The translations under genes and the position numbers were made by a program. The notes beneath the pieces are model-generated. The model made no database searches. It was not told the origin of the DNA and saw only the letters and a program-made list of their open reading frames with translations. A DNA stretch of 64,000 nt from Thermodesulfobacteriota bacterium (GTDB lineage: Bacteria > Desulfobacterota_D > UBA1144 > Nemesobacterales > Mycalebacteriaceae), in the NCBI GenBank assembly GCA_965226585.1, contig OZ245366.1, forward strand, positions 1,319,423-1,383,422, read 5' to 3'. Every line of letters starts with the position of its first letter. Position 1 is the first letter of the stretch. This document shows positions 9,126-59,353 of the stretch, in pieces.

Positions 9126-9270
9126 TAAGGGTTCCCGTATTAGGGATAATTCAACAGCAAAACTCGGCGTTGTTAGACCGGTTATGGCGCGGGATTATAC
9201 CCATACAGACTATATTGTTGGGGTTTTCTGTCAAATGGGGAGAGGGGTAGAAAAGGGGTTTTTTTCCGTC

Positions 9271-9291
9271 ATTCCGTGCTTGACACGGAAT
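9271..9291. repeat. Solitary repeat-derived hairpin (attccgtg-cttga-cacggaat) in the A–B intergenic spacer, 7 nt past the paralog B stop codon.
   Basis: A perfect 8-bp stem with a 5-nt loop, the same hairpin module found in the 113-bp array units. On the plus strand it is preceded by GGGG-T7. Confidence 0.5.
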
Positions 9292-9297
9292 CCGGTA

Positions 9298-13122: not shown

Positions 13123-13195
13123 AACGGCACGGTGAGGTGTCTTGATTTGGTGAAGTATATTTGCGTAGAGGGTAGATGTCCACTAAGACGGGGCA

Positions 13196-13221
13196 GGTGT
13201 CCAATAAAGGTGTCCAATAAA
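13196..13221. promoter_or_regulatory. Tandem 13-bp direct repeat, ggtgtccaataaa ×2, upstream of paralog B. It may be a regulator-binding site.
   Basis: A perfect direct repeat ~75 bp upstream of the B start codon, between B and repeat array 1. Confidence 0.25.
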
Positions 13222-13226
13222 ACGGA

Positions 13227-13870
13227 ATGCCTTCCCCGTCATTCCGTTGCCTTTCCCGTCATTCCTGCGAAAGCAGGAATCCAGTATTGGTTAACCAGTT
13301 GAATACTGGATTCCGTGTCAAGCACGGAATGACGGGATGGGGAAAAACACGGAATGACACACTTTCCCGTCATTCCTGCGGAAGCAGGAATCCAGTATTG
13401 ATTAACCAGTTGAATACTGGATTCCGTGTCAAGCACGGAATGACGGGATGGGGAAAAAAGCACGGAATGACACACTTTCCCGTCATTCCTGCGGAAGCAG
13501 GAATCCAGTATTGGTTAACCAGTTGAATACTGGATTCCGTGTCAAGCACGGAATGACGGGATGGGGAAAAAAGCACGGAATGACACACTTTCCCGTCATT
13601 CCTGCGGAAGCAGGAATCCAGTATTGGTTAACCAGTTGAATACTGGATTCCGTGTCAGGCACGGAATGACGGGAAGGGGAAAAAGCGCGGAATGACACAC
13701 TTTCCCGTCATTCCTGCGAAAGCAGGAATCCAGTATTGGTTAACCAGTTGAATACTGGATTCCGTGTCAGGCACGGAATGACGGAAAGGGGAAAAGGCAC
13801 GGAATGACGGGAGTGTAGAAGCGTCATTCCGTTGCCTCCTCCGTCATTCCTGCGAAAGCAGGAATCCAGT
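13227..13870. repeat. Tandem array 1 of the ~113-bp palindromic repeat, ~5.5 units, NIME-like.
   Basis: The motif cacggaatgacacactttcccgtcattcctgc recurs at 13348, 13461 and 13574 (period 113). Each unit carries three nested hairpins: ATTCCTGCGGAAGCAGGAAT, ccagtatt-ggttaacc-agttgaatactgg and attccgtg-tcaag-cacggaat. There are no unique spacers. Confidence 0.9.
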
Positions 13871-13883
13871 ATTATTTAACCCG

Positions 13884-14174
13884 ATGGACAAAAATCCCGC
13901 AGTCTACATAATGGCGAGCAAGCGAAACGGAACACTTTACACAGGTGTAACCAGCAACCTGCCCGCCCGCGCTTGGGAGCATAAGAACAGCGCGACAGAA
14001 GGTTTTACAGACAAATACAGTGTCCACCTGCTTGTGTACTTTGAAGTGCACGAGGATATGAATTCAGCAATTGAACGCGAGAAGCAGATAAAGCAATGGA
14101 AACGCCAATGGAAATTGGAACTTATAGAGAAAGACAACCCTGAATGGAAAGATTTGTATGAGGATATTGTTTGA
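13884..14174 (+). CDS. GIY-YIG nuclease superfamily protein, 96 aa, of the UPF0213/YhbQ-like small stand-alone GIY-YIG type.
   Basis: The N-terminus reads AVYIMASKRNGTLYTGVTSNLPARAWEHK..., matching the GIY-(10-11)-YTG...R...EH pattern of the GIY-YIG catalytic domain. It is the only plus-strand gene in the island. It is inserted in the loop of a repeat-unit palindrome. Confidence 0.75.
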   Translation: MDKNPAVYIMASKRNGTLYTGVTSNLPARAWEHKNSATEGFTDKYSVHLLVYFEVHEDMNSAIEREKQIKQWKRQWKLELIEKDNPEWKDLYEDIV

Positions 14175-14920
14175 GTAGGGGTTTCGCCAGTTGAATACTG
14201 GATTCCGTGTCAGGCACGGAATGACGGGAAGGGGAAAAGGCACGGAATGACACACTTTCCCGTCATTCCTGCGGAAGCAGGAATCCAGTATTGGTTAACC
14301 AGTTGAATACTGGATTCCGTGTCAGGCACGGAATGACGGGATGGGGAAAAAGGCACGGAATGACGGGAGTGGAGAAGCGTCATTCCGTTGCCTCCTCCGT
14401 CATTCCTGCGGAAGCAGGAATCCAGTATTGGTTAGCCAGCTGAATACTGGATTCCGTGTCAGGCACGGAATGACGGGAAGGGGAAAAGGCACGGAATGAC
14501 ACTCTTTCCCGTCATTCCTGCGGAAGCAGGAATCCAGTATTAGTTAGCCAGTTGAATACTGGATTCCGTGTCAGGCACGGAATGACGGGAAGGGGAAGAA
14601 GGCACGGAATGACACTCTTTCCCGTCATTCCTGCGAAAGCAGGAATCCAGTATTAGTTAACCAGTTGAATACTGGATTCCGTGTCAGGCACGGAATGACG
14701 GGAAGGAGAAAAGGCACGGAATGACACACTTCCCCGTCATTCCTGCGGAAGCAGGAATCCAGTATTGGTTAGCCAGTTGAATACTGGATTCCGTGTCAGG
14801 CACGGAATGACGGAAAGGGGAAAAAGGCACGGAATGACGGAAAAAAAACAATCAACGGAATGACGGAATGGTGGAAAGCACGGAATGACGGGAAGGGGAA
14901 AAGGCACGGAATTACAGGTC
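14175..14920. repeat. Tandem array 2 of the ~113-bp palindromic repeat, ~6 units plus a degenerate A-rich tail.
   Basis: ccag(t/c)tgaatactgg recurs at ~14190, 14302, 14440, 14551, 14662 and 14774. The array sits directly downstream of the paralog C stop codon. Confidence 0.9.
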
Positions 14921-17900
14921 TTAAAACCTGTAATTAACTCCGCCTCTGAACTGTTGCACAAAAGTATCAACCGAAGAACTAACCCCGCCGCCATATTCAA
15001 CACTCACATTAAACTTCTCATAAGGGCTGTATTCAAAACCCGCCCCGTAGGTGAACATCACCCTGTCCATTGTGCCGTCAACGGGAACATTATCCCTCTC
15101 AAGCCTTCCTTCAATCTCAGATTCAGGGTTAAGCACTTGTATATCCGCCCCTGTTCTTATCCACATATTTATTGTCTCATTGAGAGGACTCCGCGCCTCT
15201 ATTGACGGACTCACGTACACAAGCAACTCGCTTATCTCATCTACCCCAAAGGCATCCATCGCCGCATCCGCCGCACCTGTTCCTGTTGTAAGCGAAGTCT
15301 CATTAAACTTATCCGCCGTTATTTGAGATGCTCCAACCGCCACACGGGGGAAGAAAGCGAACTCTCCCATTAAGAACGGTCTTGCCGCGCCTATCTCGCC
15401 GCCGAATACCGTTGCGTCCACATCCGCCGAGTAACTGTTACCCGCCGTTCTGGTCGCTTCCCAACTCGTTGACCCGTAACGCAGGTTGCCGTCAAGCACA
15501 AACTCATCAACCAACGCCTCGGCAAATATACCGCCCATGAACCTTGTTGCATCTCCGCTTGCTTTGCCCAGTCCTCTCGTGTCCGCCGCAGTCTCTGTTT
15601 CTGAACTCGCGTCTATGTCCGATATCTCATATCCGCCCGCGATAGAAACAAGCACTCCGCTAAATGGCGCGGAAAAACCGCCGGTGAAGGAATAAACATC
15701 CTCGTCATATTGTATCGCCGATGTGTGCCTTGTGTATCTTCCGCCCGATGTTGCCCATACGCATCCGCCAGTCCAAAACTCTCCTTCTATCTCATCACTC
15801 GCCGCTCCGCTGATTCCGCATCCTCTTGCCAACTTGTCAGCAAAGTTTCTGTCTGAACGGTAGGCGGACTGTATCAATGCGTCATATACATCCAAACTTG
15901 TGTCTTTGTGCGATGTTGCTCTTAAAAACAGGTTGCCGTTTTCGTCTGTCTCAACAGTTATTCTTTCGCCGATTTCCGCGCTCAGGCGGTCTGCAACTTC
16001 CTGCCTTTCTTCGCCTTCCGGCAGGGCTTCCGCTTCAAAAATTGTGTATTCCGTTACATGCGCGCCGGGAACTTCAACTTCAACATTGAAACCCTCAACA
16101 TCTTCGGCGGTTATCGTCCCCTCAAGGTCTATCAGCGGGTCGCCCGCAACGCTTTCAGGGTCTGCCGTGATAACAAGGGTTGAGTTTGCGCCGAAAGATA
16201 TCTTCTCAAGCCCGTTAATCGTTTCCCCGCCACTTATTACCAAAGTTCCGTTGACTGTCAGAGTGTCTCCATCGCTATCTCCAAAGTTCAGAGAACCGCC
16301 GCCCGATTTCTCCGGCTCCGTTTCCACAAACTCAGCGGTTCCCGCAGAACCGAGACGGAAACGCCCGTCTCCGCCGGATGATGCGGAACGCCTGCTGCTG
16401 GTGGTAATATTCGTGCCTTCATACGTTCCGCCTGCGGCTATGGTAACACTTGCGCCGCCCACAACAGCAGATGTGTCTATGTCGCCATACACCTTGCCGG
16501 TGGCGTTAATCGTAACTATTCTGTTATCGTAACCAAGGGTTCCTGACCACCCCTTCGCGCCCGCAGACATTTTTATCGCCTTGCCGCCCGTTACGTTCAC
16601 GGTTCCGTCCACCCAAACAAAAGCCCCGCCGTTTGCCGTGCTCGCGGAAATCCCGATTCCCGAAGTCGCACCCGCCGCCCCTTTCGCGTACACCGCCGAA
16701 CCTTCATCAATAATTACATTTGCATATCCGGTATCAGCCCTCGCTATTATCGCCTTCCCGCCGGTTCCGCTCGCGTTCACAAGCGTTCTGCCTCCTAATC
16801 TTACTGTCGCCTCTATGTCATGCACACTTACGGCAGATGCCCCTGTTTGGGGGTTCGTCCTCGGCGCGCCGGTTGTTGTGGCGTTCAGCCCTTCAGCCTG
16901 TCCGCCCGGGAGGCTGATAACATGTGTAACATCCGAACTTGACGAATGATAAGAGTTGACAGTCGCGTCCGCCCCGGCCGATTCTGCCACGGCATACTTG
17001 CTTTGGGTTCCGTTTGCGTAACGCACTGCGGGAGTTCCTCCGCTTGGTGTGCGGAAAATAATATCCACCCGGGCATTTGCGCTGCTTGAGGATGCGTGGG
17101 CGGCGGTACTGCGGTTGTCGCCGTTCACGAATAAAATGCCGCTCGTCTCAATACTTGCGTTTCCGCCTGCGCTAGCCCGTATCGCCGTGCTTCCAATGCC
17201 CTCCGTATAGACAGCCGTGCTGTGACTTGCCTGTCTGATTAAAACATTTCCCGACCCGCTCACTCCGTACAGGGCGTGGCTTTGCTTCTGCACCGCCCAC
17301 ACTTTTGCCTGTCCTGAAACGGTAATGGCAACATCTCCGCTTCCGCTTGATACGCCACTAAACGCGGATGACCTGTCAGGGATGACTGACAGCCGAGAAT
17401 CTCCGCTCATTGAAAAAGATATATCTCCGTTTCTCGTCTCCGCGACAATTGCGTCTGCAAGGAAATGACCGCGCATAGCTACCTGAGAGGTGCCGCCAAG
17501 CGCAATATTTATGTCTCCGTCCGCGCTGTTCGCGTGTATGGCTCTGGCGGCGGTTCCGTATTGCGGGAATCCGGCTATCACCTGCGCGCCGCCCTGCAAA
17601 CTGACGGTTGTGGAGCCGTTGCGGGTTTGCAGTCTGACGGTATTGGTATTCGACTGCCCTGAGGAAACATACGCCGAATCCGGATTCTCTAACGGCGCGT
17701 CTGCCGCCGCCGCCGCGCCGTTGACATAAAGCCCTATGGCACCGTCCACCGATGTCGCTTTTATGGTGTCGCCACTCCCGCCGGTAACGACTCGCGACTT
17801 GTCGGAAATGATTATTTTTGTTTCTCCGTTACCCACTTGCGACACGACACCGCTTCCTACCGCCTCTATACGGGAATCGCCAACCAGAGTAATTTCCGTT

Positions 17901-29568: not shown

Positions 29569-29614
29569 AAGGGTTCCCCTCGGAGGGTTAAATTGGATTG
29601 ACTAATCTTCGGAA

Positions 29615-29643
29615 AAGATATAGTTCAACGGAAGTTGTGTCAA
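29615..29643 (-). promoter_or_regulatory. Putative σ70-type promoter for paralog D: -35 TTGACA at 29638-29643, a 17-nt spacer, and -10 TATCTT at 29615-29620 on the minus strand, followed by a GAGGGG Shine-Dalgarno before the ATG.
   Basis: The minus strand reads ...ctcTTGACAcaacttccgttgaactaTATCTTttcc. The whole ~120-bp leader is conserved upstream of paralog G at 49765-49900. Confidence 0.45.
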
Positions 29644-29689
29644 GAGTTGAAAAGGGAGACAGGAAAAAAATTTTTCATTCCTGCGGAGG

Positions 29690-30700
29690 CAGGAATCCGG
29701 CATTGGTTTAGCCGGTTGAATACCAGTTGAATACTGGATTCCGTGTCAGGCACGGAATGACGGGAGGGGGAAAAAGGCACGGAATGGCACACTTTCCCGT
29801 CATTCCTGCGGAAGCAGGAATCCAGTATTGGTTAGCCAGCTGAATACTGGATTCCGTGTCAGGCACGGAATGACGGGATGGGGAAAAAGGCACGGAATGG
29901 CACACTTTCCCGTCATTCCTGCGAAAGCAGGAATCCAGTATTGGTTTAGCCATGTTGAATACTGGATTCCGTGTCAGGCACGGAATGACGGAAAGGAAAA
30001 AAGGCGCGGAATGACACACTTTCCCGTCATTCCTGCGAAAGCAGGAATCCAGTATTGGTTAGCCAGTTGAATACTGGATTCCGTGTCAAGCACGGAATGA
30101 CGGGATGGGGAAAAAGGCACGGAATGGCACACTTTCCCGTCATTCCTGCGGAAGCAGGAATCCAGTATTGGTTTAGCCCAGTTGAATACTGGATTCCGTG
30201 TCAGGCACGGAATGACGGGATGGGGAAAAAGGCACGGAATGACACACTTTCCCGTCATTCCTGCGGAAGCAGGAATCCAGTATTGGTTAGCCAACTGAAT
30301 ACTGGATTCCGTGTCAGGCACGGAATGACGGGAGGGGAAAAAGGCACGGAATGACACACTTTCCCGTCATTCCTGCGGAAGCAGGAATCCAGTATTGGTT
30401 AGCCAGCTGAATACTGGATTCCGTGTCAGGCACGGAATGACGGGATGGGGAAAAAGGCACGGAATGGCACTTCCCCGTCATTCCTGCGGAAGCAGGAATC
30501 CAGTATTGGTTAACCAGTTGAATACTGGATTCCGTGTCAGGCACGGAATGACGGGATGGGGAAAAAGGCACGGAATGGCACACTTTCCCGTCATTCCTGC
30601 GGAAGCAGGAATCCAGTATTGGTTAACCAGTTGAATACTGGATTCCGTGTCAAGCACGGAATGACGGAAAGGAAAAAAAGGCACGGAATGACGGGATGGG
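29690..30700. repeat. Tandem array 3 of the ~113-bp palindromic repeat, ~9 units, lying between the E stop and the D promoter.
   Basis: ccag(t/c)tgaatactgg recurs every ~113 bp at 29730, 29838, 29953, 30065, 30180, 30293, 30406, 30519 and 30632. The loop varies between ggttaacc, ggttagcc and ggtttagcc. Confidence 0.9.
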
Positions 30701-33700
30701 TCAAAAACTGTAATTAACCCCGCCTCTGAACTCTTGCACAAAAGTATCAAAACTCGCGCTCATTCCGCCATCGTAATCAATCCTTACACTCAATTCCCGC
30801 AGAGGAGCATAAGGCGTGTATTCAAAACCCGCGCCGTAGTTGAACATTATCCGGTCCTGCCCGCCGCTTCGGGGAACATTACCGTCAGCAAGAGTCGCCT
30901 CAAGTTCCGCCTCAGGGTTCAAGATGTGTATGTCCGCACCTGCGCGAATTCTCATATTTACCGTCTCACTCAAAGGCGAACGCGCCTCAAATGACGGACT
31001 TACATATACCAGTATCTCGCTTGTGTCTTTTACTTTGAAAGCGTCAGCTATTGCCTCAGGAGTGTTTGTTAAGGAAGTCTCATCAAACGCCCCCGCTGTT
31101 ACATAAGACGCTCCAATCTCTATACGGGGAAACAACGCAAAAGTGCCGGACAAAAACGGCATTGCCGCGCCAAGCGCGCCGCCGAATACTGTTGCGTTTG
31201 TGTCCGCAGTGTAACGGTTATCTCCCGCAGTGCGGGTTGATTCCCAACTCGTAGAAACATACTGAAACCTGCCGTCAACCATGTATCTGTCCACTATTGT
31301 GGAAGCGAAAATGCCGCCCATAAATCTTGTTGCCTCTCCGCTTGCGTCTGCTCTGCCTTCATCAGTCATCACATCCATATCAAGGTTTGATATTTCATAA
31401 CCGCCAGCCACCGAAACAAGAATGCTGTTAAACGGCGCGGAAACGCCGCCGGTGAAGGTATAGACATCTTCGTCATAGTTAATCGCTGAAGAATAACGTG
31501 TGTACCTTCCGCCCGATGTTGCCCACACGCAACCAGTCCAGAAATCTCCGTCTATTTCATCACTTGCCGCAGAGCCGTAACCGCAACCGCTTGAAAGTTT
31601 TGTGGCAAAACTCCTGTCTGCGCGGTAAGCGGATTGTATGAGAGAATCATAAATATCTAAACTGGCATCTTTCAGCGACATTGCCGTCAGGAAAAGGTTG
31701 CCGTCTCCATCAGTCTGAACACTTCCCCTTTCGCCTATTCCCGCATTCAGACGCTCTACAACTTCCTGCCTTTCTTCGCCTTCGGGCAGGTCGTCCGCTT
31801 CAAAAATTGTGTATTCCGTTATATGCGCTCCGGGAACATCAACTTCAACATTGAAACCTTTTACATCTTCCGCAGTTATCTCGCCTTCAATATCTATGAG
31901 CGGTTTGCCTGTCATCTCTTCGGGGTCTGCCAAGACAACAAGGGTTGAATTTTCTCCAAAGGTTATTTTTTCCAGTCCCGCAAATCCGCCTGTGTCTTGA
32001 ATTACGATTGTGCCTTCGTTTATGAAATGGTCATCGCCATCGCCAAAGTTAATGGTTGCCCGTTCCGGCTCCCGCTCAGGCGCGGCGGCGGATAGGCGGA
32101 AGCGGCTGTCGCCGCTTGCTGACCCCTCCCCCGTCATTCCTGCCTCCCCCGTCATTCCTGCGGAAGCAGGAATCCAGTATTGGTTAGCCAGTTGAATACT
32201 GGATTCCGTGTCAGGCACGGAATGACGGGAGGGCGCGGAATGACGGGAAGGGGAGGATGCGGAATGACGGGAAGGCGCGGACGAATGACGGGCGGGCGTA
32301 GAAAGCCCCTCAACTTCGTCATCGTCACCGTATATGACCATACCCGCGCCGTTTATTATGCCGGAGTTCTCGACAATATCATCGCCGTCTCCCGTGTCAA
32401 AATCGCCGGTAAGCGTCATAACTCCCGTTTCTTCGTTGTAGAGTTCGTCATTGCCATCGCCCATGGTGCCGCTTCCGGTGAATATGCCTCTGTTCTCGAA
32501 AAAGTCATCGCCGTCTCCCATGTCAAAAGAGCCGCCGGTAGTTGTGATAACTCCCGATTCTTTGTTGCTAACAATATCGTGAGAATCGCTCAGTTGAATA
32601 TTTCCGACTATCGTTCCCATATTGTTCAGAGTAGCGTGTAAGTCCTTCCTACCTAAACTGCTCCCGTCATCGTCTAAACGCAAGGCATCCACCCTGTTCG
32701 CGGCTGTAACCACACACTCGTTACGAAATTCCACGCCGCCGCACAAAAGACCGCCCTCATAAATTTCCACAACAGTTCCCTGATAAGACGAACTGCCGCT
32801 TCTCAAATATGCCGCCACAGAGTTCATCCCGGAGGCATACACACTCGCGCTTCTGTGGATGTAGAGTGTTGCATTGCCCGTGCCGCTGGAAGATTCTCCC
32901 TTGGAAAGCAGGATGGTTGTGCTGTCCGCTCCGGTTGTGTACACACGCGATTCGGCTATGTTCGCAACAGAAGCTCTCTTGGGCGCGTTAATATTCACCG
33001 CCACACTGTTCACACCATTTGTGAACACACCAGACGAACTGCTAATAGAAACAGTTGAGTTCGCGCTTTCCGCGCTCCCTTCCCCTATCCATATCGCGTG
33101 GCTGTCATTTGCCGCCGTGTACACCCGCGCCCCGGCGGATACTTGTATGTAGGAATCCCCGGTAGTGCTGTTAAAAGATATGGCGTTGCTTTCCGCCCCG
33201 TTCGCAAACACTCTGGAAAAATCGTGAACCGTTATATGTCCAACCGCCTCCGTATCTACGATTATGGCACTGCCCGCTTTTGTGGTGAACACGGTTGATG
33301 ACTGGTTGACTATTATTTGCGTTTTATCGTTGTTTATTCTGTCGTCAAGGTAGCTCAAATAAGGACGCTCTTCCAGACCGTTTGCGTAGATTGCCGCGCT
33401 TCCCGCGCCGTTTGCCCACACATGAGACTGATTACCGACAGTTATAAGTTGGTCTCTGCTACTAACATTGCCGTAGATTGTGCGCGACCCGTCTCCCTGC
33501 GACCACACGTTTGAGCCGTTGATTTCAATTCCCACAAACCGGTGGGAATCCCCCCACAGCGCGCGTCCGTCTTGCCCCGTTGCCCAAACCCTTGAGCCGT
33601 TGGCAATCACAATATAAGAATCGGTTGTTAATGATGATGTTGTCTTTGTCCTTATGCCGTATCCGTCTCTGCCCGTAGTTTTGATGTTTGAACCGCTGAC

Positions 33701-34600
33701 AACAACATTGCCTCCTCCCGCTCCCAGCATATTCATAAAGACTGCCGATGAACGTGTAGGCGAGGTAGTTCGTGTGGAATTTTCAAAGATGTCTGAATCG
33801 CTAATTTCCACATAGGTTCTGCCAGCCCCCGTTGTCCGCGTCCTGATGGTGTTTGAGTCCCGGCTTGAACTTCGTTCGCCAGTCCACATTTTTGACGAGC
33901 TGACCTTCAAGGTAATCGCGTTGGCTCCGGCGTCTGAGTTTGACGAGAAGGCAAAAATTGCCGAACTGTCGGACTTTCCCGCCCATATTGTTGAGCCGTT
34001 TATGCTGACCGCAACACTGCCGCCTCCGGCATTGGCAACAACCGCGTTTGAGTCCGCCCCGTCCGCCCATATATGCGAGCCGTTTATTTCAATGTCTATA
34101 TTCTCGCTGTCGCCCGCGCTGCTGAAATGAGCGATGTTCGCATATCTGGGTACTATGCGCGCGCCTATTTGCGAGTTGTGAATGGCAACAGACATTGCCG
34201 CAGGGGTCGCCGTTTCCGCCCACACCGCGCCCGCTCTCTGTCCGCCGTTTGCCCACACATTCAGGTTGCGGAGTTCAAGCGCGGGGCTGTCTGTCCTGAT
34301 AGTGTTGACACTGCCGCCAACAGACCATATTTCCATCGTCTCGCCTTCCGCCGCGAGGATTGAGAGTTTGTCGGCGCCTTCAGACCATATTGCCGAACTG
34401 CTCGCCCCGCTTGCCCATATTTTTGAGGGACCCCGCACGATGAAAGAAACATTGCCGCCCGTGCTTTCCAAGCCAATCGTTATGCTTTGCGCGTAAGAGT
34501 CGCCCGGCGCGGGGAGGGCGAAAAGAAGAGCCAACAGAATAATGGCGATTGATTTTTTAGGCATTTTTTCAGTTGGCGCACAATGTTTTTTGTCCGTCAT
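30701..34600 (-). CDS. Autotransporter-like outer-membrane protein, paralog E, 1299 aa, with an in-frame insertion derived from the intergenic repeat.
   Basis: Signal peptide ...KKSIAIILLALLFALPAPGDSYAQ. The barrel ends ...EFRGGVNYSF. Bases 32120-32300 are a copy of the intergenic repeat, translated in frame as ...SRHSVPDTESSIQLANQYWIPASAGMTGE.... Confidence 0.85.
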   Translation of the reverse strand: MTDKKHCAPTEKMPKKSIAIILLALLFALPAPGDSYAQSITIGLESTGGNVSFIVRGPSKIWASGASSSAIWSEGADKLSILAAEGETMEIWSVGGSVNTIRTDSPALELRNLNVWANGGQRAGAVWAETATPAAMSVAIHNSQIGARIVPRYANIAHFSSAGDSENIDIEINGSHIWADGADSNAVVANAGGGSVAVSINGSTIWAGKSDSSAIFAFSSNSDAGANAITLKVSSSKMWTGERSSSRDSNTIRTRTTGAGRTYVEISDSDIFENSTRTTSPTRSSAVFMNMLGAGGGNVVVSGSNIKTTGRDGYGIRTKTTSSLTTDSYIVIANGSRVWATGQDGRALWGDSHRFVGIEINGSNVWSQGDGSRTIYGNVSSRDQLITVGNQSHVWANGAGSAAIYANGLEERPYLSYLDDRINNDKTQIIVNQSSTVFTTKAGSAIIVDTEAVGHITVHDFSRVFANGAESNAISFNSTTGDSYIQVSAGARVYTAANDSHAIWIGEGSAESANSTVSISSSSGVFTNGVNSVAVNINAPKRASVANIAESRVYTTGADSTTILLSKGESSSGTGNATLYIHRSASVYASGMNSVAAYLRSGSSSYQGTVVEIYEGGLLCGGVEFRNECVVTAANRVDALRLDDDGSSLGRKDLHATLNNMGTIVGNIQLSDSHDIVSNKESGVITTTGGSFDMGDGDDFFENRGIFTGSGTMGDGNDELYNEETGVMTLTGDFDTGDGDDIVENSGIINGAGMVIYGDDDEVEGLSTPARHSSAPSRHSASSPSRHSAPSRHSVPDTESSIQLANQYWIPASAGMTGEAGMTGEGSASGDSRFRLSAAAPEREPERATINFGDGDDHFINEGTIVIQDTGGFAGLEKITFGENSTLVVLADPEEMTGKPLIDIEGEITAEDVKGFNVEVDVPGAHITEYTIFEADDLPEGEERQEVVERLNAGIGERGSVQTDGDGNLFLTAMSLKDASLDIYDSLIQSAYRADRSFATKLSSGCGYGSAASDEIDGDFWTGCVWATSGGRYTRYSSAINYDEDVYTFTGGVSAPFNSILVSVAGGYEISNLDMDVMTDEGRADASGEATRFMGGIFASTIVDRYMVDGRFQYVSTSWESTRTAGDNRYTADTNATVFGGALGAAMPFLSGTFALFPRIEIGASYVTAGAFDETSLTNTPEAIADAFKVKDTSEILVYVSPSFEARSPLSETVNMRIRAGADIHILNPEAELEATLADGNVPRSGGQDRIMFNYGAGFEYTPYAPLRELSVRIDYDGGMSASFDTFVQEFRGGVNYSF
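32120..32300. mobile_element. Intergenic-type palindromic repeat element inserted in frame inside paralog E, in the passenger/β-domain linker. It behaves like a Rickettsia RPE or a MITE.
   Basis: The coding sequence contains ccccgtcattcctgcggaagcaggaatccagtattggttagccagttgaatactggattccgtgtcaggcacggaatgacggg. The equivalent site in paralog A (window ~860-960) has no insertion. Confidence 0.8.
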
Positions 34601-34662
34601 TCCAATACTGGATTCCTGCTTCCGCAGGAATGACGGGAAAAGGCAATGGAATGACAGGGCAC

Positions 34663-37600
34663 CTAAAACGCCAATCCAAATCTTGCGCTGAACCTTTGTG
34701 TCAATGTATCAAGCCCCGCGCCAACACCTCCGCCATACTCAACCCGCAAACTGACACCGCTTCCGGGCGTAACCTCAAGCCCCGCGCCGTATTTAACCAT
34801 CACCCGCTCAAAATTGCCGTCAGCAAAAACAGGGTCGGGGTCTGCGGGGGTGCTTTCGGGGGAACCGCCGCTCCACTTTGTTTCAGGGTCTGTAATGTGC
34901 GCTTCCGCTCCCAAACTCATCCAAATATTTACCGAATCCCCCGCCGGAGCATACGCCTTTACGGACGGGCTTATGACTAAATATGTCTCCCCCGCCTTGT
35001 CAACCGAAATGGCGGAATCTCCCGCGCTTTTCTCACCGAAACTGTCAGCAGACACCCGTGTAACCGCCGCTTCAACTCTGGGGACAACCATAAACACGCC
35101 GCCGGGAACAATCGGCATTTCCGCCCCCACAGCCGCAGACCATGTTGATATGTCGGTTTTCGCGTTGTAGAAAGCGGACGACCTTACCGCAGTTGACTCC
35201 CATACCGCTTTGGCAAACTGCGTTCTCGCGTCCGTAATAATTCCGTCCCAAATCTCACCCGCCACCGCGATACCCGCCATAAACCGCTCGGCAACGGCGT
35301 TTGTGTCCGCCCCGATTTCAAAATCCGATGTCTCATATCCCGCCGCTATTGAAATGGCGGACTTTCCGGAGGGTATTGTGAAACCGCCTGAAAATACATA
35401 AGCGTCTTCGCCGTATTTGGCGTTGTCTGCGTTTTGGCGTGTGTATCTGCCGTCTGTGTCCGCCCACACACAGCCGCCGCTCAAGTCCTGAGTTTCCGCC
35501 CCGCCGCCGCCGTAGCAACCGCCGCGCAGTTTTTCAGAGAAGGCATTGTCCGCATAATAGGCGGATTGCAGTATCGCGTCATAGTTTCGCAGGTAATCCA
35601 TGTGTTCCCGTGTTACAAGGGTGATGAATATATTGCCGTCCGCAGACATCCGGGCGTTTTCGCCTTCGCCGAGCCCTTCTCTTATCATGCCGAGAATGGC
35701 TTGCCTTTCCGCTTCGCCATCGGGAATGGCGTTTTCGCTGAACATGGCGAATTCGGCGGAATGTCTTGCGGGGTTGTCAAACTCTATGCTTATGCCTTTT
35801 ATGTCTTCCGCCGTTATCTCGCCTTCAAGGTTGATGAGGGGTTTGTCGTTCATTTCCCCGGGGCTTGCGGAGACAACAAGGGTTGAGTTTTCGCCGAAAG
35901 TTATTGTGTCCAGTCCGTTAAAGCCGCCCGCGCTTGTGATGGTTATTGTGCCGTTGTTTATAAAGTGGTCTGTGCCGGAGCCGAAGTCTATACCCGTGGT
36001 TGGCGCGGGTGGAGGCGAGGCGGAAAGGCGGAAACGGCTGTCGCCGCTTGCTGACGGGGTAATACTGGATTCCGTGTCAGGCACGGAATGACGGGAGGGG
36101 GAGGATGCGGATGCGATACGCATGGAGCCGCCGCCGTCTCCCTCTGTTGATACCGTGCCTCCAAGTATTTGCGAGCTGTCATAGGTTACGCTCGCGCCGT
36201 CTTTGTTGACGAAAGTGTCATCACCGGCTCCCATGTCAAAATCTCCGGTGAGGGTGAAGGTTCCTTTGTTTTCAACTCTGTCATCGCCGCCGCCGGTTGT
36301 GCCGCTTCCGGTGAATGTGCCGTTGTTGTAGAAAACATCGCGGGTTTCTGAAAGCGAAATTTTCCCCACGATACTGCCGCCGGTGGATCTGGTTGTTATC
36401 TTTGTGCTGGCGGTCGCCCCGTCTGCCGTCTCAAAACGCACGGCGTACACATCCGCGCCGCCCTCGGTGCAGGTTGCTCCCGCAAATACGCCGCCGCACA
36501 CGGTCGCGTCTCTGGCAACGGTTAGAGCCATTGAGCCGTTGATGTTTTTGAAAGACACCGCCGAACTGTTTGAGCCGTTCACCCACGCCTTTGAGCCGGC
36601 CGAGGCTAACTCAAAATCCACATATCCGTCCACATCCGCTTTCACCGCCGTGCTGTTCGCCTCCTCAGCCCAGAAAGTTGATACGCCGTTTGATATAAAG
36701 ATTATGTTTGTCCCCTCAATCGCGGAAAACGCCGCGCTGTTCACGCCCTTTGTGAAAATCTCAGAAACAGCCGGGACCCCGTCCGCTTGAGTGAGGGAAA
36801 TCAGAGTCGTGCTGTTCACGCCGCCAGTTACAAGCGGAACCTCATCTGTTTGGGAGTAGGAAATCAGAATCGCGCTGTTCACGCCGTTAATCCCAATCGC
36901 CGTGCTGTCCGCCCCTTCCGTCCACACCTTCGCGCCACTTACAGCCGCCGTCAGTGTCAACCCCGAAACCGAAATCGCCGTGCTGTTCGCGCCGTTCGTG
37001 AAAACGGACGAACCCATATACATAGCCCCTTCACCGCCGATGGACATACGCACCGCCGTGCTGTTTGCCCCTTCCGTGTAAATGCTTGAGTTTTGACTGA
37101 GAGTCGCGCTTACAAAACTGCCGAATTCCGAAGATGAGACCGAAACTGCCGTGCTGTCCGCGCCGTTTGTGAAAACCGTTCCGCCGTACCAAATGTCCAC
37201 TCTTGCCGTTCCGCTATCCGTTTCCGCCAGAATCGCCGCCCCGTTATCCCCGTCTGTCCACACAGTCGCGTAGTCCGGGAAAAACCGCCAAAAAAGCCCC
37301 TGCCCGTCTATGGGGAAGTTTATTACAACTTGCGCGTTTCCTTCACCAGACCGCGCCTTTGCCGCCGAACTGTCCGCGCCGTTTGCCCATACTTCGGCGG
37401 TAACGGTGTAACCGAGAATATTGATGAACGCGTTTTCGTCCCCCGCCACATCAATAGTCGCGGTGTTATCGCCTTCCGACCACACTGTTGCGAATGTGCT
37501 GACAATCGCATTGGCATCTCCCGCGTCCGCCCTTGCGTGGATAACGGGGGAGTTGGGCGCGTTTGTCCACACCTGCCCCACAGAACCGCTGAGCGTTATG

Positions 37601-49836: not shown

Positions 49837-49879
49837 GAATTAAAAGGGGGGGGCAGGAAAAAATTTTCACTCCTGCGGA

Positions 49880-50450
49880 GGCAAGAATCCGGTAGTTAGC
49901 CCAGTTGAATACTGGATTCCGTGTCAGGCACGGAATGACGGAAAGAAAAAAAGGCGCGGAATGGCACACTTTCCCGTCATTCCTGCGAAAGCAGGAATCC
50001 AGTATTGGTTAGCCCAGTTGAATACTGGATTCCGTGTCAGGCACGGAATGACGGAAAGGAAAAAGGCACGGAATGACACACTTTCCCGTCATTCCTGCGA
50101 AAGCAGGAATCCAGTATTGGTTAGCCCAGTTGAATACTGGATTCCGTGTCAGGCACGGAATGACGGGAAGGAAAAAGGCACGGAATGGCACACTTCCCCG
50201 TCATTCCTGCGGAAGCAGGAATCCAGTATTGGTTAGCCCAGCTGAATACTGGATTCCGTGTCAGGCACGGAATGACGGAAAGGGGAAAAAGGCACGGAAT
50301 GACGGGAAGGAAAAAAGGCACGGAATGGCACACTTCCCCGTCATTCCTGCGGAAGCAGGAATCCAGTATTGGTTAGCCAGCTGAATACTGGATTCCGTGT
50401 CAGGCACGGAATGACGGAAAGGAAAAAAGGCGCGGAATGACGGGATGGGG
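49880..50450. repeat. Tandem array 4 of the ~113-bp palindromic repeat, ~5 units, between the H stop and the G promoter.
   Basis: The unit recurs at 49897, 50017, 50127, 50237 and 50378. Confidence 0.9.
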
Positions 50451-53400
50451 TCAAAAACTGTAATTAACCCCGCCTCTGAACTCTTGCACAAAAGTATCAA
50501 AACTCGCGCTCATTCCGCCATCGTAGTCAATCCTTACACTCAATTCACGCAAGGGAGCATAAGGCGTGTACTCAAAACCCGCGCCGTAGTTGAACATTAT
50601 CCTGTCCTGCCCGCCGCTTCGGGGAACATTACCGCCATCAAGGGTCGCCTCAAGTTCCGCCTCAGGGTTCAAGATGTGTATATCCGCCCCCACGCGAATT
50701 CTCATATTTACCGTCTCACTCAAAGGTGAACGCGCCTCAAATGAGGGGCTTACATATACCAGTATCTCACTTGTGTCTTTTACCTTGAAAGCATCAGCCC
50801 TTGCCTCAGGAGTGTTTGTTAAGGAAGTCTCATCAAACGCCCCCGCTGTTACATAAGACGCTCCAATCTCTATACGGGGAAACAACGCAAAACTCCCCGA
50901 TAAAAACGGCATTGCCGCGCCAAGCGCGCCGCCGAATACTGTCGCGTTTGTATCCGCAGTGTATCTATTATCTCCCGCAGTGCGGGTTGACTCCCAACTT
51001 GTGGAAACATACTGAAACCTGCCGTCAACCATATATCTGTCAACTATTGTGGAGGCAAAAATGCCTCCCATAAATCTCGTTGCTTCTCCGCTTGCGTCTG
51101 CCCTGCCTTCATCGGTCATCACATCCATATCAAGGTTTGATATCTCATAACCGCCTGCCACCGAAACAAGAATGCTGTTAAACGGGGCTGATACTCCGCC
51201 GGTGAAGGTATAGACATCTTCATCATAGTTAATCGCTGAAGAATAACGTGTGTACCTTCCTCCCGATGTTGCCCATACGCATCCAGTCCAGAAATCTCCG
51301 GCTATCTCATCACTTGCCGCAGAGCCGTAACCGCAACCGCTTGAAAGTTTTGTGGCAAAACTCCTGTCTGCGCGGTAAGCGGATTGTATGAGAGAATCAT
51401 AAATATCCAGACTGGCGTCTTTCAGCGACATTGCCGTCAAAAACAGGTTGCCGTCTCCGTCTGTCTCAACACTCACTCTTTCACCCGCCGCCGCGCTCAG
51501 ACGCTCTACAACTTCCTGCCTTTCTTCGCCTTCGGGCAGGTCGTCCGCTTCAAAAATTGTGTACTCGTTTATATGCGTTCCGGGAACATCAACCCTGACT
51601 CTAAAACCTTCAATATCTTCCGCAGTTATCTCGCCTTCAATATCTATGAGCGGTTTGTCATTCATTTCTTCAGGGTCTGCCGAGACAACAAGGGTTGAAT
51701 TCGCGCCGAAAGTTATTTTGTCCAAGCCGTTAAAACCGCCCGCGCCGGCAAGAACTATTGTGCCTTCATTTATGAAATGGTCATCGCCTTCGCCAAAGTT
51801 AATGGTTGCCCGTTCCGGCTCCCGTTCAGGCGTGGAAGAAAGACGGAAACGGCTGTCGCCGCTTGCTGACCCCTCCCCCGTCATTCCTGCCTCCCCCGTC
51901 ATTCCTGCGGAAGCAGGAATCCAGTATTGATTAGCCAGTTGAATACTGGATTCCGTGTCAGGCACGGAATGACGGGAGGGCGCGGACGAATGACGGGAAG
52001 GGGAGGATGCGGAATGACGGGAGGGCGATGATTGCGCGCCTGAACTTGCCGGCGTAGGAGTAGTCGGTGTAGGCGTTATCGTGTGCGTGTCATCGCCTGC
52101 TACTGTGCCGCCGTCCAAATTCACAAAAGTGTCATCACCGGCTCCCATGTCAAAATCTCCGGTGAGGGTGAAGGTTCCCCTGTTGTTCACTACGTCATCA
52201 CCGGCTCCCATGCTGCCGCTTCCGGTGAATGAGCCGTTGTTTTCAAAAGTCTCCGCACGCCCGGAAGTCTGCAGAATTCCCGTTATGCTTCCCGCGTCCA
52301 AAGCAGTTCCCCCGGCGGTGGTTTCAGCCGCATGAGTTACAATCTTTATCACCCCTCCCGTACTGTCCGCCGCAATATCGCCCGCCGCAATTGTTACCGC
52401 GTTTCCGGCGGTCGCGTTCACAACCGAACCCGCGCTCACATCAACCGTTACAGCTCCGGTGGTGGTGGAAACAGAAATTGTATCGGCATCAGCCGCTACC
52501 GTGTGCGCGGCGGAAAACGGACGCATATAGACTTGCGCGTGTCCACTTGCGGTTGTCGCGATAATCGCCCTTCCACCCGCGCCGCCCGCTCTGACTGCGG
52601 CGCCGTCTCTTACATAGATAATGGATTGTCCCCCTCCGGTAACTCGCGCGTTAAGCCCGATTCCGCCCATGCCGTCTGCGGTTATCTCCCGCTTAATTCC
52701 CCCCGCATCATCCGCGCTTCCGTTACTCCATGCCGCGTTGATAATCGCGTGAGCATCCCGCGAGACGGCATCAACAACCGTGCTTCCCACGCCGTTTGCG
52801 AATATGCTGTTTCCCGGACCCCCAAGCCAAATCTCTGAATTTTGCCTTAGTGAAACTGTTTCTATCACCTTACTGCCATCGCCGTTTGCGAATATCGCGC
52901 CGTTTGCGTGAACAATCGTCTTCTGAGCGTCCGTGTTTGCAAAGACTGTTTTACTGCGGTCGCCGTCAGACCACACTTCCGCGCCTGACTCAACGACAAA
53001 TGTCGTCGGTCTTCTGTTTCCCGACTGCATTCTTACAGTTGCGCTGTCCACGCCGTTTGTCCAGATTTTTGAGGTTCCCTCGGCACTGGCGCGCGCAGAG
53101 GCGTCTTTGGCGTGAACACGCAGACCTATGCTTGAATCCCCATGCGCGAACACCTGCGCGGAGCCTATAACCCGAACATTCATATCTCCGTGCCTTTGGT
53201 TGATGTCGTGTCTGGCAAGGGGTCCCGGGTCGGAGGAAGCGAAAATGGCGTTACTGTTCCCCTCCGTTACTCCAACGCTTGCCGTGTCAGAGATTGTTAT
53301 TATTGACGGGGCTTGGAGACCTATTGCCCTGATTGCCGTGCTTCCCGCGCCGTTTGCGCGCACTGTTGCCCTGCCGCGTATGTTGGCAATAACTCCATCC

Positions 53401-55912: not shown

Positions 55913-55941
55913 AATCTAAATGTAAATTGGCTTGTTTTCAA
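55913..55941 (-). promoter_or_regulatory. Putative σ70 promoter for paralog H: -35 TTGAAA at 55936-55941, a 17-nt spacer, and -10 TAGATT at 55913-55918. It overlaps the fmt stop codon.
   Basis: The minus strand reads gTTGAAAacaagccaatttacattTAGATTtcc, ending ~45 nt upstream of the H ATG. Confidence 0.4.
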
Positions 55942-56849: not shown

Positions 56850-56867
56850 ACGGCTTTCAAACGGCTT

Positions 56868-58640: not shown

Positions 58641-58652
58641 TGGATAACCGCC

Positions 58653-59336: not shown

Positions 59337-59344
59337 CGCGATTG

Positions 59345-59353
59345 TGCTATATT
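59345..59353 (+). promoter_or_regulatory. Possible extended -10 promoter (TGcTATATT) for rpoZ.
   Basis: The sequence gattgTGcTATATTacacg lies in the 63-bp divergent spacer between hisIE and rpoZ. The GGAGGGG Shine-Dalgarno follows at 59388-59394. Confidence 0.35.

Follow-up and report, generated by a model that had tools for sequence, protein, structure and literature searches.

Tandem arrays of NTS-like hairpin doublets with a nested ssnA homologue at surface-protein gene borders

What are the tandem arrays of a 113-bp repeat that lie between giant genes in this bacterial DNA, and what might they do? In the window (the whole stretch of 64,000 nucleotides that was analysed), the original prediction had recognized 25 units in four arrays and had offered four roles for them, namely terminator or insulator activity, modulation of promoter distance, sRNA production and service as substrates for recombination. 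The reading preferred here, with a probability of about 0.7, is that the arrays consist of clustered hairpin motifs of the Ssn-related type (NTS-like repeats), accompanied by the gene of their cognate enzyme. The NTS and SRM repeats and the SsnA GIY-YIG single-strand nuclease are the subject of Chenal et al. 2025, Nat Commun 16:2388 (PMC11893778), where NTS, an extended dRS3, is the recognition site of SsnA. The locus is a further example of this repeat-plus-nuclease system of Neisseria and not a new kind of element.

Anatomy and distribution of the repeat unit

Tandem Repeats Finder, with a period of 112/113, delimits repeats at 13251-13808 (5.0 copies, 97% matches), 14397-14838 (3.9 copies), 29723-30690 (8.6 copies) and 49867-50303 (3.9 copies, continuing to 50445), the identity of the 113-bp unit in the arrays being 94-97%. 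The repeats are thus real, and ~25 array units of 111-115 bp each are counted from GTCATTCCTGCG anchors and two degenerate promoter-proximal units. The number of arrays was overstated, since the first two are a single array split by a 96-aa GIY-YIG ORF that lies in the central loop of one unit. This gene, a homologue of ssnA, is the only ORF embedded in the arrays, and its presence there was the main clue overlooked in the first reading of the DNA.

The 113-bp unit is an inverted doublet, in which hairpin A on the + strand (CGTC-ATTCCTGCGRAAGCAGGAAT-CCAG) is linked by a 21-nt loop to hairpin B on the - strand (CGTC-ATTCCGTGCYTGACACGGAAT-CCAG). It is followed by a purine-rich linker of 35 nt containing a third GTCATTCC half-box. 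Hairpin A occurs 26 times and hairpin B 29 times, with none expected by chance, and the 20-bp palindrome ATTCCTGCGRAAGCAGGAAT is found 27 times at ≤2 mismatches versus 0 in 100 shuffled sequences. As single-stranded DNA, the unit is predicted to form a long imperfect hairpin of -31 kcal/mol (z = -6.2 for the + strand and -6.5 for the - strand), with an inner stem of 13 bp and an outer stem of 12 bp, CCCGTCATTCC/GGAATGACGGG; a 12-bp long-range stem had been listed in the original prediction. It had also remarked that differences between units concentrate in the loop and in an A5-A8 tract. In the 78-nt core, 12/12 variable alignment columns fall in the three loops (hypergeometric P = 6e-8), and no change affects the stems and flanking boxes of the 24 copies. 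A second palindrome with a GTTAAC core had been listed as a unit feature; it is not a conserved one, since GGTTAACC is present in only 11/24 cores, the other 13/24 having GGTTAGCC or longer variants. Array-specific homogenization is not seen, core identity being 0.962 both within and between arrays.

Array 1 begins with its left part (13227..13842, + strand), made of two leading GTCATTCC half-boxes and 5 full units, the final one being a long variant of 136 bp. Then comes the unit that carries ssnA (13884..14174, +) in its central loop. Its left half is hairpin A, CGTCATTCCTGCGAAAGCAGGAATCCAG (13842..13869, +), which ends 14 nt before the ATG; the unit sequence picks up again at 14187, 12 nt past the ssnA stop codon, and includes hairpin B, CGTCATTCCGTGCCTGACACGGAATCCAG (14198..14226, -). 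Loop differences aside, the flanks of ssnA are the two halves of a unit. The right part of the array (14227..14920, +) comprises 5 full units and ~4 copies of a 26-bp sub-repeat (GGCACGGAATGAC plus a purine tract) that abuts the stop codon of gene C (14921). Array 2, at the E|D junction (29664..30700, +), consists of 1 degenerate promoter-proximal unit and 8 full units and abuts the E stop codon (30701). Array 3, at the H|G junction (49858..50450, +), has 1 degenerate and 4 full units, one of the latter being a 140-bp variant, and abuts the H stop codon (50451). Because one unit has ssnA in its loop, the others can be seen as gene-less copies of a hairpin(+)-ssnA-hairpin(-) cassette. Lacking the gene, each amounts to two inverted Ssn-related hairpins in the manner of a REPIN or BIME, and the comparison extends to MITEs.

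As originally proposed, the arrays have the stop codons of C, E and H on one side and, on the other, promoter-like sites that precede B and D. These sites are sigma-70-like matches on the - strand, TGGACA-17-TATACT (13154..13182), which separates array 1 from the B start, and TTGACA-17-TATCTT (29615..29643), which stands likewise between array 2 and the beginning of D. The claim that the repeats occur only at transcription-unit boundaries does not hold, given complete in-frame units in E and H and a half unit in F. The unit in ORF E (32125..32295, +; ...SRHSVPDTESSIQLANQYWIPASAGMTGEAGMTGEG...) comes with GTCATTCC sub-repeats, that in ORF H lies at 51872..52030 (+), with 50-60 unit-encoded residues in the E/H linker, and the half unit in ORF F is a hairpin B (36065..36093, -) located ~1.4 kb from the stop codon, a distance equal to that of the units in E and H. 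Gene pairs joined by short spacers had been described as devoid of repeats, but two such spacers contain them. In the F|E spacer, a mini-unit in inverted orientation (34595..34648, -) has hairpin A between GTCATTCC/GGAATGAC boxes; the listed ATG of E lies in one of these boxes, which makes Met13 (MPKK...) a likelier start of translation. Between B and A, a solo hairpin B in flipped orientation (9267..9295, +) stands directly after the B stop codon (9298).

Within the window, the hairpins cluster non-randomly near membrane/surface-protein genes. All 55 belong to the giant-gene cluster, from 9.2 kb of the window onward, with none in the 8 kb of housekeeping genes of the window and none in 23.6 kb of syntenic DNA from relatives (L128/L129). 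Pfam gave no match for the full-length giant proteins, and only C-terminal pieces of B, C and D gave any; with pieces of 333 aa, B matches PF03797 (3e-13) and C and D match PF13505, which are barrel domains. No tRNAs were found.

The nested nuclease gene and its hairpin motif

The 96-aa product of the nested gene is a single-domain GIY-YIG protein, as small as expected for the family (~94-100 aa), with PF01541 (residues 6-78, E 8e-16) as its sole Pfam match; searches of NCBIfam, PADLOC and PHROG gave none, and the sequence matches no solved structure. Pairwise BLASTP against a 94-aa orthologue of SsnA from Neisseria gonorrhoeae, itself assigned from its length, its Y6/Y17/E64 residues and its NTS flanks and used in place of the meningococcal protein, gives 57% identity over 92 aa without gaps (E 5e-41). 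A tblastn search with the 96-aa protein against the N. gonorrhoeae chromosome filed in PLSDB gives 1e-29. By way of this gonococcal orthologue, the protein falls below E < 1e-10, the operational criterion for SsnA homology (PMC11893778). Its residues Y8, Y19 and E66 align to Y6, Y17 and E64 of neisserial SsnA, the catalytic residues (Neisseria meningitidis numbering) that were mutated in the SsnA study (PMC11893778). Among 13 homologues, Y19, R29, H33 and E66 are invariant and Y8 is nearly so, and homologues from different phyla are 70-80% identical. As described above, ssnA has one hairpin on each side, and the same hairpin(+)-ssnA-hairpin(-) layout is seen in Winogradskyella (L113), in a Rickettsia endosymbiont (L045) and in a metagenomic locus (L125).

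The likeness of the palindrome to dRS3, which the original prediction had pointed out, is closer than it suggested. With its flanks, the palindrome (CGTCATTCCTGCGRAAGCAGGAATCCAG) is identical to the meningococcal NTS at 25-26 of 28 positions. Compared with the NTS consensus CGTCATTCCCGCGMAVGCGGGAATCYRG, the 26 copies of hairpin A have 2 mismatches (GAAA loop) or 3 (GGAA loop), with 0 sites expected, and two of these mismatches are paired (C10>T and G19>A), i.e. a compensatory change of a C:G to a T:A stem pair. The published NTS search allows ≤1 mismatch, and no hairpin A copy (0/26) qualifies under it. Likewise, the published SRM pattern HGTCWYN(0-2)YYVSBRHN(0-5)WNVSBRGN(0-2)RNCYNB has 0 matches in the window (simulation mean 0.38), because the T:A stem pair found here involves bases that it does not admit at these positions. 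The strict dRS3 motif ATTCCC-N8-GGGAAT also has 0 window matches, the motif here being ATTCCT-N8-AGGAAT; a relaxed pattern suited to the variant hairpin is CGTCATTCC-N8-12-GGAATCC.

The flanks are conserved, CGTC and CCAG being exact in 26/26 hairpin A and 28/29 hairpin B copies, with the solo hairpin B (9267-9295) ending in CCGG instead of CCAG. The GTC 5′ and the C 3′ of the palindrome are kept in every copy of both hairpins, and these flank positions are critical for cleavage and binding by the meningococcal SsnA (PMC11893778). That enzyme is inactive when the sequence of the palindrome is altered even if the hairpin is kept (PMC11893778). Since it needs the palindrome sequence, recognition by one Ssn of both the T:A variant and the differing stem of hairpin B is an assumption. 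The variant NTSvar of Neisseria wadsworthii was considered as the identity of the element and rejected, its published sequence CGTCATACTCGGGNNNNNCCCGAGTATC being different. A Neisseria origin of the DNA was rejected as well, for a single chance 12-mer is all that matches the DUS dialects, and the AspRS is near those of Ca. Mycalebacterium/Dadabacteria. The host is apparently related to Ca. Mycalebacterium (Dadabacteria) and would, if that affinity holds, live in a sponge-associated community. Exact matches to the Ssn of the window, to its 116-aa variant, to the AspRS and to P0136 were absent from the protein records.

Beyond this locus, a 25-mer of the motif occurs in >15 phyla among the matches listed. 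It is also present in Rickettsia genomes (L013, L020, L045, L067, L075). In other phyla, an inverted partner box lies ≤160 nt downstream of 64 of the 115 occurrences listed, versus 15/115 for the upstream control, and MAGs of Nitrospirota and Nitrospinota contain the A+B pair in its exact form; the composite unit had no match in metagenome scans. A Ssn homologue lies within 200 nt of the motif at 3/118 loci (among the matches listed), so that most copies of the motif lie apart from the gene, as they do in Neisseria.

Proposed function and alternative explanations

With paralogous sequence on either side, the E|D and H|G junctions differ in unit number (8.6 and 4.5, respectively), and the homologous junction of the MAG GCA_051010995.1 has only a 0.3-unit remnant (this being a short-read MAG, in which arrays are possibly under-represented). 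Unit number thus varies between paralogous junctions and between genomes. The in-frame unit marks the exact start (5′ edge) of the homology between E and H, nucleotide identity climbing there from ~0.47 to 0.77-0.98. In a related MAG, a stand-alone gene for the C-terminal module has a unit just upstream, flipped with respect to the in-frame unit of E and H, so that the E/H fusion is not a simple read-through of that arrangement. Together, ssnA in the array, the unit at the breakpoint and the variable unit number make recombination substrates the closest of the four roles first suggested.

Units were probably amplified head-to-tail via slippage or unequal exchange. For their function, a mechanism can be outlined by analogy with SsnA of N. 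meningitidis. Ssn would bind the folded hairpin with its oriented CGTC...C flanks, in single-stranded DNA only, and would cut a few nucleotides upstream of it. Because each unit has a site per strand, no unit would escape cutting in a single-stranded copy of the intergenic region, whether incoming DNA or an intermediate of recombination or replication supplies that copy. At the edges of surface-protein genes, these cuts may then determine where recombination tracts end. Cutting at these borders, with modulation of recombination, is the likely function by extrapolation from Neisseria, and it is on the same grounds that we infer cleavage of the hairpins by the Ssn encoded here and an effect of the arrays on recombination in the host.

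An alternative that deserves tentative consideration is that the units are purely selfish or neutral, REPIN- or MITE-like derivatives of a mobile ssnA cassette expanded by slippage without host benefit. Such derivatives would have settled in permissive intergenic DNA and been expanded there by replication slippage, and arrays could persist in this manner because slippage explains homogeneous tandems better than nuclease-driven spread. The hairpin-ssnA-hairpin layout argues for this view, as it resembles an insertion sequence (PMC11893778), and horizontal spread is suggested by the high identity of Ssn across unrelated phyla and by the presence of the 25-mer in so many phyla among the matches listed. 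In addition, a restriction-modification island has one cassette at the hsdS 3′ end, and P0121, with the same 96 residues and a different upstream sequence, suggests another copy in the same genome. However, the combination of invariant stems and boxes with variable loops indicates selection on the element (possibly for its own propagation), and the hairpins are confined to the surface-protein cluster, a bias of such repeats towards membrane-protein genes having been reported in Neisseria (PMC11893778). Moreover, target-site duplications are not seen and transposition activity has been shown for no Ssn.

It is somewhat more doubtful that the units are mainly terminators or insulators and 3′ mRNA-stabilizing structures between the giant genes, similar to REP or BIME in enterobacteria, with an incidental link to Ssn. 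On the - strand, which is the sense strand for all giant genes, each unit junction reads GGAATGAC-N10-GTCATTCC followed by T5-8, with a stem of 9 bp (~11 with a bulge), and two units are predicted to fold as RNA at -120 kcal/mol (z = -9.7). The arrays extend from the C, E and H stop codons to a point short of the promoter-like sites. A scan for terminator-like sites finds 7 (8 in all) at 13000-15100 versus 2.8 ± 1.5 in shuffled sequence, and 5 at 29450-30800 versus 1.3 ± 1.3, although counts in repeats are not independent events. The T-run lies 4-5 nt past the perfect stem, which has only 4 G-C pairs, and the sites would therefore be weak terminators. Furthermore, one terminator would suffice where 5-11 are present, and units do not keep one orientation with respect to transcription, those that occur singly in the MAG (L119, L121) being reversed relative to their flanking genes and free of the T-tract linker. 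This explanation also leaves aside the invariant CGTC...C flanks, the nested ssnA and the in-frame copies. With the Ssn-related clusters as the preferred reading, the terminator-like sense-strand hairpins may represent a secondary effect, and a terminator or insulator role as a side effect is plausible, with one predicted hairpin and T5-8 per unit on the gene-sense strand.

A more ambitious version of the Ssn reading, regarded as unlikely, sees surface proteins as assembled from cassettes under the guidance of Ssn, with the doublets at the junctions. Cuts at doublets would give defined single-strand ends, through which one shared C-terminal barrel module could be combined with unrelated passenger regions, and the unit would be kept as a translated linker. 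This would explain why E and H are homologous only from the in-frame unit onward, why the half unit of F has the same position as the units of E and H, the stand-alone module with a unit just upstream in the related MAG, and the arrays at every large gene boundary.

The two remaining roles of the original prediction fare worse. A phase-variation switch, in which gain or loss of units shifts promoter distance and changes the expression of B, D and G, accords with the unit numbers that differ between paralogous junctions and between genomes, but it is very improbable; the promoter-like -35/-10 pairs lie between array and start codon, wholly outside the arrays and 30-70 nt from the last unit, so that unit number cannot alter hexamer spacing, and the 113-bp unit is far longer than known contingency repeats. 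Hardly any weight is given to units that encode small structured RNAs or act as attachment sites for a dRS3-type phage recombinase, despite the strong predicted structure and the use of dRS3 in Neisseria as a target for filamentous-phage integration, since Rfam yields no family at its gathering score (generic miRNA-hairpin matches reach 17-30 bits versus thresholds of 39-150, with E up to 1), no promoter was found inside the unit, genes for a recombinase, a transposase or a prophage are missing next to the arrays and the strict dRS3 motif is absent.

Relation to known repeat systems

The locus places the Ssn/NTS system in an uncultured lineage of the Dadabacteria type with the same genomic logic, i.e. 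hairpin clusters at surface-protein genes. It offers a very clean picture, with ssnA in the loop of one doublet and ~24 gene-less doublets around it, and this layout supports a REPIN/RAYT-like relation of Ssn to its repeats. NIME-like arrays are not specific to Neisseria, and censuses of the motif probably undercount because published patterns miss the variant over one compensatory stem pair. The in-frame copies at the homology breakpoint provide a testable case for repeats in the modular evolution of secreted proteins.

Among short palindromic repeats, Rickettsia palindromic elements (RPE) can sit in frame inside protein-coding genes, and Correia elements, which have a TA target duplication and 26-bp terminal inverted repeats, give terminator or promoter signals beside genes. 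The repeats studied here are likewise short and palindromic, found in frame inside genes as RPE are, and next to genes with possible terminator signals as Correia elements are. They differ from both in sequence family and from Correia elements in the absence of the TA duplication and of the 26-bp terminal repeats. REP, BIME and REPIN elements are associated with RAYT transposases of the Y1 (HUH) IS200/IS605 type. Their analogy to Ssn repeats has been drawn (PMC11893778). The likeness extends here to the inverted doublets that fold into one long hairpin (REPIN), to tandem arrays of alternating orientation with short and long linkers (BIME-2), to an enzyme gene flanked by its own repeats (REP/RAYT) and to a location downstream of genes with terminator-like or mRNA-stabilizing potential (REP). 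In contrast, the enzyme is here a 96-aa GIY-YIG nuclease and not a Y1 (HUH) transposase, and there is no sequence similarity to REP.

NIMEs, the dRS3 plus RS arrays of Neisseria (Parkhill 2000; Bentley 2007, PMC1797815), had, according to Bentley et al. (PMC1797815), not been seen outside this genus. Like them, the present arrays consist of 20-bp inverted repeats with spacers of 50-150 bp beside surface-antigen genes, vary in length between genomes and have a proposed link to recombination of flanking genes. Unlike them, they do not contain the strict dRS3 motif, and their spacers are one repeated sequence where those of NIMEs form a mosaic of >100 RS families.

The closest relative is the NTS/SsnA system, for which experiments so far concern Neisseria and a few homologues in vitro. 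SsnA binds and cleaves site-specifically, in single-stranded DNA only, and the same is predicted for the present enzyme. Differences are the T:A stem pair in place of the C:G of NTS, with no match in the published NTS and SRM searches, the homogeneous tandem arrays of a fixed 113-bp A/B doublet with the gene in the loop of one doublet, and the three copies translated in frame, as against 2% of NTS inside genes in N. meningitidis. What the two systems have in common is a small single-domain GIY-YIG gene with oriented hairpin repeats on both sides, a nearly identical motif that keeps the CGTC and C flanks, and a clustering of the repeats beside surface-protein genes in a host that is apparently of a symbiont-type lineage.

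Architecture of the units and the embedded nuclease gene

The repeats of period 112–113 form four tandem tracts (Tandem Repeats Finder), at 13251–13808 (5.0 copies, 97% matches), 14397–14838 (3.9 copies), 29723–30690 (8.6 copies) and 49867–50303, continuing to 50445 (3.9 copies). The window has 27 copies of the 20-bp palindrome ATTCCTGCGRAAGCAGGAAT, versus 0 in shuffles, and 73 of the box CGTCATTCC, for an expectation of 0.7. Anchoring on GTCATTCCTGCG delimits 23 array units of 111–115 bp, with three long variants of 136–140 bp; with two degenerate units on the promoter-proximal side, there are 25 in all, the number given in the original prediction. The four arrays described there correspond to the four tracts, but the first two are a single array of ~11 units between the giant genes C and B, because a 96-aa ORF (13884–14174, + strand) occupies the central loop of one of its units. 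On the left, this ORF is flanked by the first half of a unit (13843–13881), and on the right, from 14187, by the second half. The ORF product matches a single family, the GIY-YIG catalytic domain (PF01541, E 8e-16).

Each unit comprises hairpin A (+ strand), a 21-nt loop, hairpin B (− strand) and a 35-nt purine-rich linker carrying a third GGAATGAC half-box. Hairpin B (CGTCATTCCGTGCYTGACACGGAATCCAG, 29 copies on the strand opposite to hairpin A) shares with hairpin A the CGTC...ATTCC / GGAAT-CCAG frame and differs in its inner stem. The 113-bp unit is an inverted doublet of Ssn-type hairpins, laid out as the pair bracketing the nuclease gene ssnA. The hairpins and long-range stem proposed earlier are recovered in the predicted fold of a single unit as ssDNA, where stems of 12 bp (outer) and 13 bp (inner) make up one long, imperfect hairpin (−31 kcal/mol; z −6.2 and −6.5 for the two strands). 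The proposed loop bias of variation is also borne out, since all 12 variable columns of the 78-nt core fall within the three loops (24 copies; P = 6e-8 under random column placement), stem and box positions being identical throughout. The 'second palindrome' GGTTAACC, found in 11 of 24 cores, is not a conserved unit feature.

Of the neisserial dRS3 copies, about half belong to the NTS, a 28-nt oriented hairpin (CGTCATTCCCGCGMAVGCGGGAATCYRG), and NTS-like Ssn-related motifs (SRM) flank ssnA, a 94-aa single-domain GIY-YIG gene, in many phyla (Chenal et al. 2025, PMC11893778). SsnA binds the NTS solely as ssDNA, on a single strand, and cuts a few nucleotides upstream; for the meningococcal enzyme, the GTC flank matters most for cleavage and the 3′ C for binding (PMC11893778). 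Both GTC and the 3′ C are among the invariant oriented flanks of the window hairpins. At 26 sites (0 expected), hairpin A departs from the NTS by 2–3 mismatches. A single stem pair, changed from C:G to T:A, accounts for two of them, and the third is in the loop. The window variant is matched neither by the strict dRS3 motif, nor by the published NTS search (≤1 mismatch), nor by the published degenerate SRM pattern. Two published sequence patterns miss the element because of the one compensatory stem pair, and the SRM pattern fails solely because T/A is forbidden there. Identity with the published NTSvar was rejected, the window element being different from it.

The reference for SsnA was a 94-aa ORF with Y6, Y17 and E64 located amid NTS copies in Neisseria gonorrhoeae NZ_CP119140.1 (a 2.17-Mb chromosome mis-filed as 'plasmid' in PLSDB), where NTS copies also occur as inverted doublets with 50–70-nt spacers. 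An ungapped alignment of 92 residues shows 57% identity between this ORF product and the window Ssn (E 5e-41); Y8, Y19 and E66 align with Y6, Y17 and E64 of the reference. Thirteen Ssn homologues from different phyla share 56–80% identity with the window protein, and Y19, R29, H33 and E66 are invariant among them. A 116-aa database protein (P0121) contains the same 96-aa Ssn with an N-terminal extension translated through a hairpin A whose upstream sequence is unlike window 13800–13884, suggesting that the host genome has two or more ssnA cassettes.

Distribution across phyla and host context

The 25-mer GTCATTCCTGCGRAAGCAGGAATCC, searched in one genome per species, was found at no fewer than 118 loci, at least. 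The hosts of the listed loci are Nitrospirota, Dehalococcoidia, Thermodesulfobacteriota, Planctomycetota, Bacteroidota, Rickettsia, Xanthomonadales, Patescibacteria and a Nanoarchaeota MAG; judged by these matches, the hairpin A repeat is not lineage-specific. Exact copies in the archaeal MAG (L006) and in two Patescibacteria MAGs (L085, L108) point either to horizontal spread on a very broad scale or to contamination during binning. The hairpin(+)–ssnA–hairpin(−) layout recurs in Winogradskyella (L113) and a Rickettsia endosymbiont (L045); a gammaproteobacterial MAG (L103) has it in degraded form. It is also present in a metagenomic locus (L125), where it sits within a type I restriction-modification island, at the 3′ end of hsdS. 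There (L125/L126, 2965–3335), a 78% identical Ssn homologue is bracketed by canonical NTS-like hairpins that lie 11 nt ahead of the start codon and immediately behind the stop codon; the island also carries a ThsB-TIR gene, and a defence-island context for Ssn cassettes could be possible.

Gene-less doublets are a general arrangement across phyla: an inverted partner box lies ≤160 nt downstream in 64 of the 115 listed motif occurrences in other phyla (median ~48 nt), versus only 15 of 115 in the upstream control, and the exact A+B pair is present in Nitrospirota and Nitrospinota MAGs. We infer that the ssnA cassette gave rise to the array units as gene-less derivatives, which would be related to it in the way that REPINs are to RAYT genes, or MITEs to insertion sequences. 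The units probably multiplied head to tail via slippage or unequal exchange. The direction from cassette to unit is only inferred, because insertion of ssnA into an existing unit would look identical.

The window AspRS shares 76% identity with its counterpart in Ca. Mycalebacterium zealandia and ~56% with those of other Ca. Dadabacteria, the lineage being Thermodesulfobacteriota, Ca. Dadabacteria. Relatives at 79% AspRS identity (L128, L129) share the order hydantoinase–rpoZ–hisIE–aspS–fmt with window 55938–62275, and their 23.6 kb hold neither giant genes nor the GTCATTCC box. Because they continue from fmt into nadK and a release-factor gene, the giant-gene cluster (at least 55 kb) is an accessory insertion or expansion beside fmt in this genome. 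All 55 hairpins of the window lie within this cluster and none in the 8 kb of housekeeping genes.

The giant genes and the placement of units

The giant ORFs are all on the − strand: B (9298–13122), C (14921–21334), D (21361–29568), E (30701–34600), F (34663–40407), G (40420–49764) and H (50451–55868). Repeats had been thought confined to transcription-unit boundaries; this does not hold, as units also lie inside E, H and partly F, and in short spacers. Complete units with GTCATTCC sub-repeats run in frame inside E (32125–32295) and H (51872–52030), a half unit inside F (36065–36093) has the same distance to the stop codon, a mini-unit occupies the spacer between F and E (34595–34648), and a solo hairpin lies 3′ of the B stop codon (9267–9295). 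The in-frame units of E and H encode ...SRHSVPDTESSIQLANQYWIPASAGMTGEAGMTGEG..., and the GTCATTCC sub-repeats, of period 24, encode an (A/S)PSRHS peptide repeat; in E, H and F the translated units form part of the linker ahead of the C-terminal barrel module. The first ATG of ORF E (34598–34600) falls within the GGAATGAC box of the mini-unit, and because a signal-peptide-like sequence begins at Met13 (MPKKSIAIILLALLFALPAP...), translation probably starts 36 nt further downstream.

The C-terminal 333 residues match the autotransporter beta-domain in B (PF03797, 3e-13) and an outer-membrane barrel domain in C and D (PF13505), and no Pfam model in E and G. The designation of these genes as autotransporters is thus directly supported for B only, 'autotransporter-like' being fair for the set. 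A search of 5.8 billion proteins gave only 4 homologues for the C-terminal region of E; this surface-protein family is therefore very rare. Long tandem repeats of 141, 369 and 435–438 bp are found within the giant genes at 6342–7365, 19769–20069, 24212–28203, 44745–46442 and 47931–48191, the largest being in D, where a 435-bp repeat is present 9.1 times. A 13-bp direct repeat, AGGTGTCCAATAA (2.1 copies, 13195–13221), just upstream of the promoter-like site of B (−35-like TGGACA, 13177–13182), could be a putative regulator binding site; it is absent upstream of D and G. An inverted repeat, ACAGGT-CTTAAA-ACCTGT (14912–14929), spans the C stop codon at the array edge.

Function of the doublets and relation to known systems

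That the arrays and ssnA represent the Ssn/SRM system, in identity and general mode of action, is the most likely reading, with a probability of 0.7. The embedded nuclease would recognise the hairpins in single-stranded form; as each unit has one site on either strand, single-stranded copies of the boundaries would be cut repeatedly, and recombination across surface-protein gene borders would be delimited or reduced. In Neisseria, NTS cluster around membrane-protein genes, deletion of ssnA raises transformation with NTS-containing DNA about five-fold, and the recombination effect at NTS-flanked DNA was demonstrated in N. meningitidis (PMC11893778). By analogy, this Ssn may act on the window hairpins and affect recombination in its host.

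Two further explanations are compatible with the Ssn/SRM reading. Purely selfish persistence of the units is possible, though it is not the favoured account. Somewhat less probable is a role as terminator or insulator. In the sense orientation of the giant genes, every unit junction reads GGAATGAC-N10-GTCATTCC followed by T5-8, which is terminator-like in the scan, and such sites exceed shuffles both in the array 1 region (8, of which 7 on the sense strand, versus 2.8) and in the region of the array between E and D (5 versus 1.3).

A use of the doublets as Ssn-defined junctions, by which passenger regions would be shuffled onto a shared barrel module, is considered improbable. Concerning recombination, E and H, aligned from their 3′ ends, are unrelated (~0.47 identity) up to the in-frame unit; exactly there, nucleotide identity jumps to 0.77–0.98, remaining mostly ~0.9 to the stop, with a few windows falling to 0.67. 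The closest relatives of this module (93% identity) are in GCA_051010995.1, a MAG labelled Thermodesulfobacteriota, where it is a stand-alone 438-aa gene (L119, 10001–11317) with its own promoter-like region and a single intergenic unit just upstream (L119, 9823–9930; L121, 9850–9930). That unit is flipped relative to those in E and H, whose history is therefore not a simple read-through fusion.

The junctions between E and D and between H and G are paralogous on both sides (~0.9 identity for the 3′ ends of E and H; 0.65–0.95, mostly 0.75–0.95, for the upstream regions and 5′ ends of D and G). Because they differ in units (8.6 versus 4.5), and the homologous junction of GCA_051010995.1 (133 nt) holds only a 0.3-unit remnant, unit number evidently changes over evolutionary time, as far as these comparisons tell. 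Phase variation through promoter distance is nevertheless considered very unlikely; promoter-like hexamer pairs lie outside the repeats, in the stretches that separate the arrays from the B and D start codons. Hardly any weight is given to sRNA genes or phage attachment sites, and no Rfam family fits the units.

The window element belongs to the known NTS/SRM-Ssn system on five tested points: the protein has the same size and single GIY-YIG domain, it is homologous to neisserial SsnA, its catalytic residues are kept, hairpins flank ssnA on both sides, and they cluster at surface-protein genes. What stands out is the homogeneous tandem array of doublets, the nuclease gene nested in one of them, the translated copies at a module boundary and a host far from Neisseria. 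The arrays resemble NIME arrays in architecture but lack their defining sequence features; likewise, the system is built like BIMEs and REPIN-RAYT systems, without their defining sequence or enzyme features.
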